Shown here one piece after another: positions 39,308 through 46,037 of a DNA stretch of 64,000 bases. Position numbers and translations under genes: made by a program. Within the stretch, counting starts at the first letter, position 1; each line of letters starts with the position of its first letter. The notes beneath the pieces were generated by a model. That model was not told the DNA's origin. It worked only from the letters and a program-made list of their open reading frames with translations, and did not search any database. The stretch lies in assembly GCA_004524445.1 (NCBI GenBank), contig SDNP01000008.1, positions 29,080 to 93,079 on the forward strand, in the 5' to 3' direction. Source of the DNA: Candidatus Thorarchaeota archaeon (GTDB lineage Archaea > Asgardarchaeota > Thorarchaeia > Thorarchaeales > Thorarchaeaceae).

Positions 39308-40114
39308 GTGCTGAAAATGGATGAATTACGAAAAATACTCAAAGCAGATAAATGGCTAGAGTGGGAAACCCTGCGGACCCATCAGAAGCAGAAAAAAGAC
39401 CCGCCCCCGTTGCAGAAACCCGTGGAGGATGAATCGAAAATCATCAGCCTTCCAGACCTTGAGAAATTTCAGATAAGAGAGAATAACTTAGCAGCAATTA
39501 TCTCAGCTCGCAGAAGCCACAGAAAATTCACTGGAGGTGCACTTTCCTTGGATGAGCTCGGCTTTCTACTATGGAGCACACAAGGGATTCAGAAAGTAGT
39601 CGGAAATCAGGGAGCGAATCTTAGGACCGTTCCTTCTGGCGGAGGACGACACCCATTCGAAACCTATCTTGTTGTGTTCAATGTGAAAGACTTGCCTGCT
39701 GGAATCTACCGCTATATACCATTGAGTCATGCCCTTCTCCCGCTACAGCAGAAACAAAATGTAACTACCACTGATATGAAGAATGTGTGCAGAAACCAAC
39801 CCTATTTTCGAGATGCTTCTGTGGTCTTTGTCTGGAGTTGTATTCCATATCGTACTTTTTGGCGCTATTCGGATTTAGCAACAAAAGTTATTGCGCAGGA
39901 TTCAGGGCACCTCTGTCAGAATCTCTATCTTGCTTCAACTGCGATTGGAGCTGGGACTTGTGCGATTGGCGCATATTACCAAGAAGAAATGGATAACATG
40001 CTCGATCTTGATGGTGAAGAGGAGTTTGTGATATATCTAGCGCCAGTAGGCAGAATCGATATGACAAAGATACTCGACCATGACGATGTTTTTCATAAAA
40101 AGTACAGTACCTAA
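39308..40114 (+). CDS. SagB/ThcOx-family nitroreductase-like dehydrogenase
   Basis: 'RRSHRKF', 'RTVPSGGGRHPFETY', 'DSGHLCQN'. Confidence 0.88.
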   Translation: MLKMDELRKILKADKWLEWETLRTHQKQKKDPPPLQKPVEDESKIISLPDLEKFQIRENNLAAIISARRSHRKFTGGALSLDELGFLLWSTQGIQKVVGNQGANLRTVPSGGGRHPFETYLVVFNVKDLPAGIYRYIPLSHALLPLQQKQNVTTTDMKNVCRNQPYFRDASVVFVWSCIPYRTFWRYSDLATKVIAQDSGHLCQNLYLASTAIGAGTCAIGAYYQEEMDNMLDLDGEEEFVIYLAPVGRIDMTKILDHDDVFHKKYST

Positions 40115-43376: not shown

Positions 43377-43584
43377 ATTATTTCTCTCGCGTATGCGGTT
43401 TGCAGGACTTGAAAAGTAGCGTAAATCTCTGAAGGAAGTGCATTGGTAGATCCAGTAACTGTCTCATCTGGAGTATGTGCGCATACGTTGTTGGTACCTG
43501 CATGTTGAGCGAAAACTAGTTTGCTTATTACCTTATGTGTCGAGCTAAATAGATTAAAAATGATTCAAGGAGGTTACCGGCGCC

Positions 43585-43642
43585 CCGGGCAGGGGTGTCC
43601 GATTCGGCTCACAACTTTACGCCGAACCTTCATCCGCCGCTG
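43585..43642 (-). promoter_or_regulatory. Eukaryote-type SECIS element
   Basis: mRNA reads AUGA(43633-43630)-A-GGUUCGGC-GU-AAA-GUUGUGA-GCCGAAUC-G-GA(43599-43598): kink-turn quartet, 8-bp helix, unpaired AAA. It lies about 80 nt downstream of the in-frame UGA. Confidence 0.85.
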
Positions 43643-43791
43643 GTCACAATCTCCTTCCTGGCTATCTCGCGACCCTCATCATCCACGATGGTTAGATGAG
43701 CGCCGCAGGATAGTCAGCAGTCATAGCAGCGGACTACCATCTCCAAGAGATTGAGTAGCCCTTCTGGTATATCATCTGTTATTTTTTTCAA
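43630..43791 (-). CDS. vhuU: Selenocysteine-containing hydrogenase small peptide VhuU (53 aa, Sec at UGA 43716-43714)
   Basis: Manual translation MKKITDDIPEGLLNLLEMVVRCYDCULSCGAHLTIVDDEGREIARKEIVTSGG* matches the hydrogenase L2 motif E...R.YD(P)CxxCxxH that is missing from the upstream large subunit. Start is uncertain (TTG 43791). Confidence 0.9.
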
Positions 43792-43800
43792 CTCCTTTTT

Positions 43801-45117
43801 TTAGGTCTTAACGAGTGGTTCTGGTAATTTGAGATCCTCATGGGCTTTGTCTTCAAAGATTTGCTTCGCTGCCACCATCAATGATTTCTCAATTCCAGCA
43901 ATATTGTTGTTGGTTGCCACGATTAGATTCGCCTTCACAACTATTCCCTCTTCGTCGCACTCGTAATTGTGGAGAAGGGTTCCTCGTGGTGCCTCAACTA
44001 TGCCAACGCCGTCTCCCGCCTTTGGTTCAACATCTGATAATTTGATATCTGTACTAACAATATCAGGGTCTTCAAGCAAGCTCTTGATCCATTCAGCAGC
44101 CTGAACCATCTCCACAACTCGAGCGTAGTGGAACGCGAATGTATGGTGTGAAGGCCGCCCAATCAATTCACGCATCTCCTCAAGGGCTTCTTGAGCCAAC
44201 GGAGTGGCCATCTTGTCAGCTACATTGCACCGAGCCAGAGTATTTGCACGCCAGATTCCATCGGGATAACCAGCTGGTTTGAAGTAGGTATGAGTGGCAT
44301 AGGAATGGTTGGGAACATGTTCACCGTAGTACTTTGTGTACTCGCTTGGTTCAAAGTCGGCTACTATTTTCCCGTCAGGATCCATCACTCGAACATTTCC
44401 TTCATAGATATCTAGAACACCATCATTGGTCAGCCCAAGATAGTATGTTGGAGTGACAGCAACCTTTGTCACAACATCTACATAGTCAGTGATTACCTTT
44501 TTGGCAAGGTCAACTGTCTTGTCTATATTCTCCAAGAGTTCTGGCACTTTTTCCACCCATTCGTCGCGCTCTTGTTCACTGAGGGGGGATAGCATGCCGC
44601 CAGGAATTGCGGTTGTTGGATGGATTGCCTTTGCTCCCACTGTTCTGCACATCTCTTGCCCAAACTCCATCAGCTTGATTGCTTGGACAGCAACATCAGG
44701 AAGATGCTTCAGTATTGCTGCCACATTTCGAACTGCAGGGTCAGCAAAAGGTCCAAATACAAAATCGGGTGCGGCAAGAGCATAGAAATGAATTGCATGC
44801 GAGGATAGCTGTTTTGCCTCCATCATTAGACGACGCAGTTTGATTGCCGGTTCGGGAGGTGTGATATCCCAAGCTGCTTCCACTGCCTTTGTAGAGGCTA
44901 AGTGGTGAGGGATTGGACAAATGCCGCAGATTCGTGGAGCAATCCGAATAGCCTCCTCCATTGGTCTGCCTTCAAGGAATTTTTCGAAAAATCGGGTGCT
45001 TCCAACGTTGAATTGAACATCTTTGACCTTCCCGTCTTCACTCAATTTGATAGTTAATGCACCGTGTCCTTCGAGCCTTGTTACTGGGTCTACTCTAATC
45101 GTCTTCTCTTTTGCCAT
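43801..45117 (-). CDS. vhuA: Group 3c [NiFe(Se)] hydrogenase large subunit lacking the C-terminal L2 motif (VhuA/MvhA)
   Basis: 'PVTRLEGH', L1 motif 'RICGICP..H', 'EAPRGTL.H', 'ANLIVAT'. Ends without DPCxxC. Confidence 0.92.
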   Translation of the reverse strand: MAKEKTIRVDPVTRLEGHGALTIKLSEDGKVKDVQFNVGSTRFFEKFLEGRPMEEAIRIAPRICGICPIPHHLASTKAVEAAWDITPPEPAIKLRRLMMEAKQLSSHAIHFYALAAPDFVFGPFADPAVRNVAAILKHLPDVAVQAIKLMEFGQEMCRTVGAKAIHPTTAIPGGMLSPLSEQERDEWVEKVPELLENIDKTVDLAKKVITDYVDVVTKVAVTPTYYLGLTNDGVLDIYEGNVRVMDPDGKIVADFEPSEYTKYYGEHVPNHSYATHTYFKPAGYPDGIWRANTLARCNVADKMATPLAQEALEEMRELIGRPSHHTFAFHYARVVEMVQAAEWIKSLLEDPDIVSTDIKLSDVEPKAGDGVGIVEAPRGTLLHNYECDEEGIVVKANLIVATNNNIAGIEKSLMVAAKQIFEDKAHEDLKLPEPLVKT

Positions 45118-46037
45118 TATTTCTTCGCCTCCTCGCGTTTCTGCCTGATTCTACCAAGATGACTAGTTGCATAGGTGAATCTGTAGAAAGTGGCAAGGGG
45201 ATCCTTTACCTTCTCAAGGAGCTTCTCCGGTTCGATAGGGGCATATGTACCAAGCATTGACATTGAAGCGGCGCCTTGGTCAGACATGATTGGTGGCGGT
45301 GGGCCAAAACAACCTCGACAGGTTGAGCCCTTGTTGACACACTGTCCCTCACAGAGACCCCATGTTGCAGATCCTAGACAGACGTATCCTTGTTCCAGAA
45401 GGCAGCTATCGGGATCAGCTTTCCCTTCATATGGACGCAGAACCTCTGGAATTGGAGTTTCTTTCTTCTCGCGATTACAATAGTGACAAACGGTATGAGG
45501 AGGTAGATTAATCTCCTCTCCGTTTAGCAATGCAGTCAAAGCAGTGAGAATGAGTTCTGATGTGGGCGGGCAACCAGGCAAGTAGATGTCAAAATCCACA
45601 ATGTCTTTGTTCGGTCTTACTGTTGGCTCAATTGCAGGCAAGTTCTCTGTTGGCACTTTTCCTCCAGAAACGGTCTTATTGTTTCTGAATTTCACTTCTA
45701 GTGCATCATCGATATCGTAGAAGTTCGCGAGACCAGGAATACCTCCAAAACATGAACATGTTCCAAAGGCAATTAGGGTCTCACACTTATCACGCATAAC
45801 CTTTAGCAGATGAACGTCTTCTTCTGTTCTTGCCATTCCCTCATATAGTCCAATCTTGATTGATTTATTGGGATAATTTTCCAAGTCTTCAAGCTTGTAA
45901 TCGACAACTCCTGCCCAGAATTTGATGTCCAGGAGAGGCAGGACATCAGCTAACTTGAGATGGATGTCAACCAGACTTTGGAAACAACCCCAGCACGAAC
46001 TTCCCTGTGCCATTGCTACGGGTACTGGATGACTCAT
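45117..46037 (-). CDS. vhuG: Group 3c hydrogenase small subunit (VhuG/MvhG)
   Basis: 'SSCWGC', 'GTCSCFGGIPGL', 'LPGCPP', 'CLG.AT...C...C......CRGCFGP'. GGAGG RBS and TAATG coupling to the large subunit. Confidence 0.92.
   Translation of the reverse strand: MSHPVPVAMAQGSSCWGCFQSLVDIHLKLADVLPLLDIKFWAGVVDYKLEDLENYPNKSIKIGLYEGMARTEEDVHLLKVMRDKCETLIAFGTCSCFGGIPGLANFYDIDDALEVKFRNNKTVSGGKVPTENLPAIEPTVRPNKDIVDFDIYLPGCPPTSELILTALTALLNGEEINLPPHTVCHYCNREKKETPIPEVLRPYEGKADPDSCLLEQGYVCLGSATWGLCEGQCVNKGSTCRGCFGPPPPIMSDQGAASMSMLGTYAPIEPEKLLEKVKDPLATFYRFTYATSHLGRIRQKREEAKK

Follow-up and report, generated by a model that had tools for sequence, protein, structure and literature searches.

The window analysed here, a 64,000-nt stretch of Candidatus Thorarchaeota archaeon DNA (assembly GCA_004524445.1, contig SDNP01000008.1, positions 29,080 to 93,079), carries on its minus strand vhuU, the gene for the detached selenocysteine (Sec)-containing C-terminal piece of a [NiFeSe]-hydrogenase large subunit, followed by a structured RNA element. 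Very probably, this element is the Sec insertion sequence (SECIS) of vhuU, of the eukaryote-like class of Asgard archaea, with the UGA of its AUGA core doubling as the stop codon of the gene and its kink-turn (K-turn) arm embedded in a conserved three-way junction. As a member of that class it is ordinary, and the overlap of AUGA with the stop is already known together with its interpretation. In VhuU.1 of Lokiarchaeota the AUGA motif also works as a stop codon, and a minimal-distance requirement was proposed (Mariotti et al. 2016, PMC4989117). In a survey of more than 400 Asgard genomes, overlap of AUGA with a UGA stop was reported to be frequent (Huang, Xiao & Zhang 2024, PMC11227280). Observation and interpretation are thus a rediscovery, and the only part that may be new is the three-way junction with its conserved second hairpin (hairpin 2), neither of which is mentioned in the text (figures aside) of these two papers and their supplements or of a 2026 review. 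Asgard SECIS elements are invoked as a 'missing link' connecting Sec decoding in archaea to that in eukaryotes, and the window contributes one more clearly annotated example from Thorarchaeota.

Read on the minus strand, the element has the form AUGA-A-GGUUCGGC-GUAAAGUUGUGA-GCCGAAUC-G-GA. The 5' half of the core, AUGA (43630-43633), is followed by an A (43629), the 5' strand of helix II (GGUUCGGC, 43621-43628), a 12-nt apical loop (GUAAAGUUGUGA, 43609-43620), the 3' strand of helix II (GCCGAAUC, 43601-43608), a G (43600) and the 3' half of the core, GA (43599-43598), with an adjoining C (43597). Helix II contains eight standard pairs (including one G-U) plus a flanking A.G. The original prediction, which had been made from the letters of the window, described this succession of AUGA, A, stem, AAA-containing loop, stem, G and GA, and its motif is borne out to the base.

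The gene itself (43630-43791, coding part 43791-43633) comprises 53 codons and a stop, as judged by translation and by comparison with orthologues. With TGA read as Sec (U) its translation ends in ...PEGLLNLLEMVVRCYDC-U-LSCGAH-LTIVDDEGREIARKEIVTSGG-stop, so that the product has the C-terminal Ni-ligand motif D-C-U-L-S-C-G-A-H followed by a 21-residue tail. The Sec codon, a UGA at 43714-43716, was assigned from translation and alignment, and its counterpart in fused Cys-type large subunits is the first Cys of their DPCxxCxxH motif. The frame is first closed by the UGA at 43632-43630, which is the UGA of the AUGA core. A recoded UGA followed by a terminal UGA built into the core had been proposed for this locus; both UGA codons are present, the exact spacing being 84 nt and not 'about 80'. 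A further UGA of the same frame lies inside the apical loop (43611-43609), 7 codons beyond the stop; it is common to close relatives and is not conserved more widely.

For comparison, the VhuA protein was used to gather vhuU loci, in part from 40 relatives and in part from genomes in GTDB (metagenome-assembled genomes, MAGs, of Thorarchaeota and, in some cases, of Loki-type 'Promethearchaeota'), which gave 64 distinct Sec-type vhuU 3' regions and an alignment of 59 sequences. Three Loki-type rows are misaligned in the latter, which makes column-based constrained folds meaningless for them, and free minimum free energy (MFE) folds were used instead. An AUGA whose UGA is the first in-frame stop is present in 60 of the 64 loci, and the distance from Sec codon to stop is 84 nt in 52 of them and 96 nt in 10 (some Thor loci). 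Across the 59 aligned sequences the A, U and G of AUGA are invariant and its last A is at least 90% conserved. In the 3' half of the core the A and the C are invariant, and the G is at least 90% conserved and replaced in a few sequences by A, which matches the published AUGA_AA variants. Two adenines of the apical loop are also invariant. Compensatory changes occur in seven of the eight helix II pairs, with 91% of cells paired. Conservation and covariation of this kind across orthologous loci are what the eukaryote-like assignment called for, and they extend over Thor- and Lokiarchaeia-type loci, as does the location of part of the structure within the coding sequence, likewise proposed beforehand. 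No comparable element follows the stops of Cys-type fused large subunits in the collected loci. Core and stop thus overlap almost universally in Sec-type vhuU of the Asgard lineages sampled. In several of the orthologues the frame stays open for more than 20 codons past AUGA.

Beyond the core and helix II, the consensus structure of the 59 sequences (RNAalifold) includes two more branches, a long helix I and hairpin 2, and the comparative data favour a conserved three-way junction that has the predicted K-turn arm among its branches. Helix I pairs coding sequence (the last ~9 codons) with a non-coding segment ~50-70 nt downstream, and hairpin 2 is located between the core GA and the 3' arm of helix I. 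The junction totals 31 pairs (helix I 19, K-turn arm 8, hairpin 2 4), those of helix I falling into two blocks, GGAAGGAG(C) with (G)CUCCUUCC and GUGACNGGCG with CGCNNGUCRC. In the window the 5' arm of helix I (43638-43656) consists of AAGGAG (43656-43651) and GUGACCAGCG (43647-43638), and its 3' arm (43567-43582) of CGCCGGUAAC (43582-43573) and CUCCUU (43572-43567), both placed from RNAalifold, pair counts and arm energies; hairpin 2, CCCC-UGCCC-GGGG (43583-43595), was placed on the non-bulged strand from RNAalifold and pair counts. A T5 tract (43556-43560) lies 6 nt past helix I and may be an archaeal oligo-T termination signal; pyrimidine- and T-rich tails are found 3' of the element in most orthologues.

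Pair counts distinguish this structure from controls in which the pairing partners were slid. Paired cells amount to 86% in the three-way structure vs 41-48% in the slid controls, the covariation score is 0.346 vs 0.09-0.18, and cells with double changes number 143 vs 30-62. Compensatory changes affect 22 of the 31 junction pairs and 14 of the 19 pairs of helix I, where GUGAC/GUCRC changes to GUGCU/(A)GCAC, CAGAC/GUCUG or GGCAGGC/GCCUGCC, and where the Loki-type rows have GUUGGCUU/AAGCCAAC vs GUUGGUUU/AAACCAA. The closing pair of hairpin 2 covaries (AU/GC/CG), its inner C-G pairs being near-invariant. In an alignment-free test, cognate helix I arms had a mean energy of -28.7 kcal/mol vs -24.1 kcal/mol for swapped arms, and none of 5000 permutations was as low. 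When each of the 59 sequences was folded singly and freely, the MFE structure had a helix I of at least 8 bp in 58 and the full junction in 42. GC is present in the hairpin 2 loop of 83 of 84 vhuU-type elements, and for most vhuU and selD elements this loop reads (C/U)GC(A/G)A.

A covariance model of the junction matched 53 of 151 sampled Asgard genomes (22/26, 23/25, 5/6, 1/3 and 1/2 genomes in the five families with matches, and none in the other families sampled). Within the genome of the window its only matches are the two vhuU copies, the second of which is located on contig C23 and folds cleanly into the junction. Among the 31 distinct matches outside Thorarchaeota all 31 pairs show compensatory changes, a count biased in favour of the structure because the alignment was fitted to the model; the free MFE folds of these sequences, which are A+T-rich or otherwise very different, have the same three branches. 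In most of them (Loki-type and other Asgard families) the core UGA doubles as the vhuU stop here too, at a distance of 84 nt from Sec. One Asgard family (four genomes, four loci) has CUGA or UUGA in place of AUGA as the vhuU core and a ministem in the arm (type II-like), the UGA still being the vhuU stop 84 nt after Sec.

The junction is also found beyond vhuU. Some of the full-length matches lie after Prx-like (Redoxin/AhpC-TSA) and MvhD/VhuD (FlpD) genes, and selD of this genome and of 17 relatives is followed by an element of the same architecture. The selD stop of this genome is likewise the UGA of the AUGA core. RNAalifold of the 18 Thor selD loci gave a helix I of GAGACCG/CGGUCUC with three compensatory columns, a K-turn of textbook form (UCC, the 3-nt bulge CRU, GA ... 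GA, GGA) and a hairpin 2 that abuts the 3' strand of helix I. The MvhD/VhuD genes of this genome are all Cys forms with no in-frame stop, and they provide no third in-genome example.

The genome, a Thorarchaeota MAG, is fully equipped for Sec decoding. It encodes tRNA-Sec, EFSec, SepSecS and PSTK, in addition to a SelD that itself has an in-frame UGA (Sec-containing). EFSec, SepSecS and a convergent PSTK are located within ~4 kb (contig C49:35951-40184); PSTK scores below the NCBIfam cut-off (142 vs 290 bits) but adjoins SepSecS and EFSec. The tRNA-Sec was detected by ARAGORN at 39356-39446 of its contig, apparently between SepSecS and PSTK.

The geometry of the locus suggests how two UGA codons of one short message could be read differently. 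A decoding ribosome covers ~12-15 nt downstream of its codon. The Sec UGA lies 58-60 nt ahead of helix I, which starts at 43658-43656, so a ribosome stationed at this codon would leave the whole element folded, and the folded SECIS could recruit EFSec with Sec-tRNA. By the time the ribosome reached the terminal UGA, the 5' arm of helix I would already be unwound entirely, and AUGA with most of the 5' strand of helix II would be held in the mRNA channel; with no SECIS left, a release factor would read an ordinary stop. Position-dependent recoding of this kind corresponds to the published minimal-distance idea, with which the nearly constant spacing of 84 nt and the near-universal overlap agree without proving it. 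We know of no binding protein for Asgard SECIS elements. No SBP2 homologue was detected in Lokiarchaeota by Mariotti et al. (PMC4989117).

Comparison with known SECIS types places the element within the Asgard class. The lokiSECIS described in PMC4989117 has AUGA on the 5' side and GA (AA in VhuU) on the 3' side of a 9-bp stem that closes an A-rich loop of 11 nt. The version in VhuU.1 belongs to an orthologous gene and is an orthologous element, with AUGA followed by a stem of ~9 positions, an A-rich loop and GA/AA, the AUGA also being the stop. It differs in that the Thor loop has 12 nt and starts with GUAAA (AAAAA in Loki), and in that the Thor element is G+C-rich with GA, not AA, after the stem. 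Alignment of the Loki-type loci with the element in the window extends across the whole model. As presented in the text of that paper (figures aside), lokiSECIS is a stem-loop only, with neither helix I nor a second hairpin. With the type I eSECIS-like elements of Thorarchaeia frhA/vhuU (PMC11227280) the element shares the core AUGA_GA, an upper stem of 7-15 bp and a loop of 8-20 nt. It is positioned after a gene with an in-frame UGA at a Cys/Sec site and has AUGA/GA flanks, an 8-bp stem (class limit 7-15 bp with at most two mismatches) and a 12-nt loop. The published apical loop of Thorarchaeia frhA/vhuU is G[U/G]AAA, and the window loop GUAAAGUUGUGA fits this pattern as given for Thor frhA. 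The lower-stem logos of the same paper, [U/C]GG_C[C/U][A/G] for frhA and G[A/U]G_C[U/A]C for selD, fit parts of the helix I described here. For type I, neither its text nor its supplements mention a junction or a hairpin inserted between lower stem and core.

Form 1 of the eukaryotic SECIS has in common with the element the non-Watson-Crick AUGA/GA core, unpaired apical adenines, a lower helix I, an upstream UGA at a distance and a proposed minimal spacing. On the other hand, helix II is shorter here, the structure overlaps the open reading frame (ORF) and does not lie far in the 3' untranslated region, and an extra hairpin is present on the 3' strand. The SECIS of Methanococcales and Methanopyrus is likewise an archaeal 3' element and serves the same vhuU gene family, but its asymmetric GAA/A bulge and ~3-bp GC upper stem do not occur in 43560-43660, where the AUGA/GA core is found. 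The prior assignment to the eukaryote-like and not the methanococcal GAA_A type is therefore upheld.

Several observations weigh against this reading. To our knowledge, no Asgard SECIS has been tested experimentally, nor do we know of an experimental system for one; function as a SECIS is thus assigned here by analogy. The sequences compared are related and many come from one family, so that the counts overstate the number of independent events. The copy in the window is not among the better examples. Its helix I is one of the weakest (-17.3 kcal/mol, rank 53 of 59), with two mismatches in the inner 10 pairs in the consensus register, its unconstrained MFE fold is a rod with an alternative proximal stem, its fold is not unusually stable relative to shuffled sequences (z = -0.92), and its vhuU is without the ATG start found in relatives. 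No Rfam SECIS family matched the whole window at the gathering score or the region 43400-43850 even at E<=10, so the check with eukaryotic covariance models suggested beforehand gave no match to the element; the only Rfam matches (mir-767, Bp1_684 and sR30) are chance matches. SECISearch3 has been reported to fail on Asgard elements of this class too (Huang et al., PMC11227280).

The motif by itself is common. A loose descriptor of AUGA, stem, AA-containing loop and GA found 185 sites in the 2.8-Mb genome, ~70 of them with a stem of at least 8 bp. Since the motif alone is frequent and the single fold unexceptional, significance comes from position and comparison. A stricter descriptor that adds hairpin 2 and helix I ranked high both vhuU copies, selD and a candidate on contig C52 (see below), and is still noisy with 71 matches in the genome. 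Its second-best match, on contig C1, was rejected, as it lies inside an ordinary FGGY kinase ORF.

The competing structure is the rod into which the copy in the window folds at its MFE. Were the active form a simple eukaryote-type rod, which we consider unlikely, a proximal stem of GCGG.GG (43640-43634) with CC.CCUGC (43594-43588) would lie under the core, and hairpin 2 and the inner part of helix I would be incidental or would represent an inactive state. This stem (consensus GCGG.GG with CC.CYGC) is built from the loop and 5' strand of hairpin 2 and cannot coexist with that hairpin or with the three innermost pairs of helix I. Constrained folding makes the two structures isoenergetic in the window copy (-34.3 vs -34.5 kcal/mol), the stem can form in 95.5% of cells of the 59 sequences with near-invariant partners, and a rod would account for the near-invariant GC in the vhuU hairpin 2 loop. 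What it lacks is covariation: most of its six pairs never vary or change on one side only, and the double changes (pairs 27-78, 28-77 and 31-75) are confined to single cells, except for three Loki-type rows at 28-77. Nor does a rod explain why, in hairpin 2, the closing pair covaries and the GGG of the 3' strand is invariant, or why inner pairs of helix I covary, and under constrained folding the junction is more stable than the rod in 52 of the 59 sequences (median 4.5 kcal/mol). Furthermore, selD elements have the same YGCRA-type loop and no complementary GC upstream, so that conservation of the hairpin 2 loop needs another cause, probably a role of its own. Core and helix II of the two-helix drawing in the original prediction stand, and in place of its proximal lower stem the comparative data favour the three-way junction. 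That the competing stem can form in ~95% of cells still counts against a single fold, and the junction may be one of two states.

Two other explanations concern function. If the terminal UGA were partly recoded as Sec, leaky termination might be tolerated because the tail is removed in maturation, and no position rule would be needed. [NiFe] hydrogenases are matured by C-terminal cleavage after the His of the CxxCxxH motif, and this explanation rests on such general tail removal, aided by the in-frame UGA 7 codons past the stop in the window copy. It is made highly improbable by selD of this genome, which has the same overlap of core and stop and no removable tail known, by the lack of a conserved back-up stop after that of vhuU (several orthologues being open for more than 20 codons), and by the position of the structure's 5' strand, which would be physically inside the ribosome at the terminal UGA. 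The structure might otherwise serve the 3' end, the stability or the termination of the transcript and have nothing to do with Sec decoding, as its operon-terminal position ahead of the T5 tract and pyrimidine-rich sequence could suggest. We find this scarcely credible, given that AUGA, AA and GA(C) are invariant or nearly so, that the structure follows Sec-containing genes of four unrelated families and was not found after Cys-type homologues, and that its distribution tracks Sec-using Asgard families.

With the SECIS assignment and the junction preferred on these grounds, a more general proposal can be formulated, to which we assign about an even chance. The functional Asgard SECIS would be a three-way junction of ~90-100 nt, common to the vhuU, selD, Prx-like and vhuD genes of several Asgard families and composed of a long helix I, the K-turn arm and an obligatory hairpin 2 on the non-bulged strand with a near-invariant YGC(R)A loop, in the topology of a k-junction. 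In these organisms, from which no SBP2 has been reported, hairpin 2 would act as an extra determinant of recognition or docking that was lost toward the two-helix eukaryotic SECIS, and the competing pairing in vhuU could amount to a two-state switch.

The predicted secondary structure fits the topology of the k-junctions known from thiamine pyrophosphate (TPP) riboswitches and DUF-3268 (PMC4005666, PMC10573300), in which tandem G.A/A.G pairs adjoin a loop in the bulged strand and an additional helix emerges opposite that loop from the non-bulged strand. In vhuU the bulged strand runs through helix I, GCGG-AU, G-A and helix II, and the non-bulged strand through helix II, G-A, C, 1-3 nt, hairpin 2 and helix I. 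Hypothetically, the invariant G (43635) and C (43597) could form a pair next to the bulge. The vhuU element differs from k-junctions in its 5' linker (6 nt vs 3), in its unrelated function and in the existence of a competing fold. The selD element has a 3-bp C stem between K-turn and junction, which makes it an ordinary K-turn beside a junction. The k-junctions are reported not to be folded by L7Ae (PMC10573300), which would bear on what binds Asgard SECIS elements.

If the junction is the real unit, search models, evolutionary scenarios (as to which helix is homologous to eukaryotic helix I) and constructs would have to include ~25 nt of coding sequence and ~65 nt past the stop. The hairpin 2 loop offers a concrete mutable target for asking what recognises an Asgard SECIS.

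At the locus itself, three co-directional genes on the minus strand (vhuG, vhuA and vhuU) form a split [NiFeSe]-hydrogenase operon with the SECIS at its 3' end. The first (45117-46037) encodes a vhuG/mvhG-like hydrogenase small subunit of 306 aa (Pfam Oxidored_q6, E 3.9e-20) and the second (43801-45117) a vhuA-like [NiFeSe] hydrogenase large subunit of 438 aa (Pfam NiFeSe_Hases, E 1.5e-29), the orthologues of which in Thorarchaeota MAGs are 77-94% identical. VhuA ends before the C-terminal metal-binding motif, and that motif is encoded by the separate vhuU. The two genes are in frame with the TAA stop of vhuA between them, and a read-through fusion in the window copy was discarded on account of this TAA. 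The start of vhuU is probably the TTG at 43791-43789, the sole canonical start available, which immediately abuts a Shine-Dalgarno-like AAGGAG (43797-43792); the ATG used by most relatives is ATA here (43782-43780) and in a same-genus orthologue. A 77-codon ORF antisense to vhuU and its SECIS (43521-43754, plus strand) is probably an artefact of a G+C-rich structured region on the opposite strand.

The second vhuA-vhuU pair of the genome (contig C23:2821-2927, minus strand) has a better-paired junction. The vhuA stop of this copy, near C23:3061-3063, is a UGA in frame with vhuU; a read-through fusion there was rejected as not conserved, the A-run of a same-genus orthologue being 1 nt shorter and out of frame. 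Several genes for a second VhuA paralogue in relatives (67-70% identical, truncated) had no recognisable vhuU within ~800 nt downstream.

The candidate on contig C52 is an 80-codon ORF (C52:53092-53334, plus strand; L129:2228-2470 in our locus numbering) with a hydrophobic N-terminus, one in-frame UGA (...DNRT-U-EEYEY...) and no Pfam match. A vhuU-like element, AUGA-A-GCUGUUGC-GUAAAG...-GCAAUAGU-G-GA, begins 30 nt past its UAG stop (AUGA at L129:2501) and comes with a second hairpin and with a helix I whose energy is -19.5 kcal/mol. This ORF may encode an unannotated small selenoprotein.

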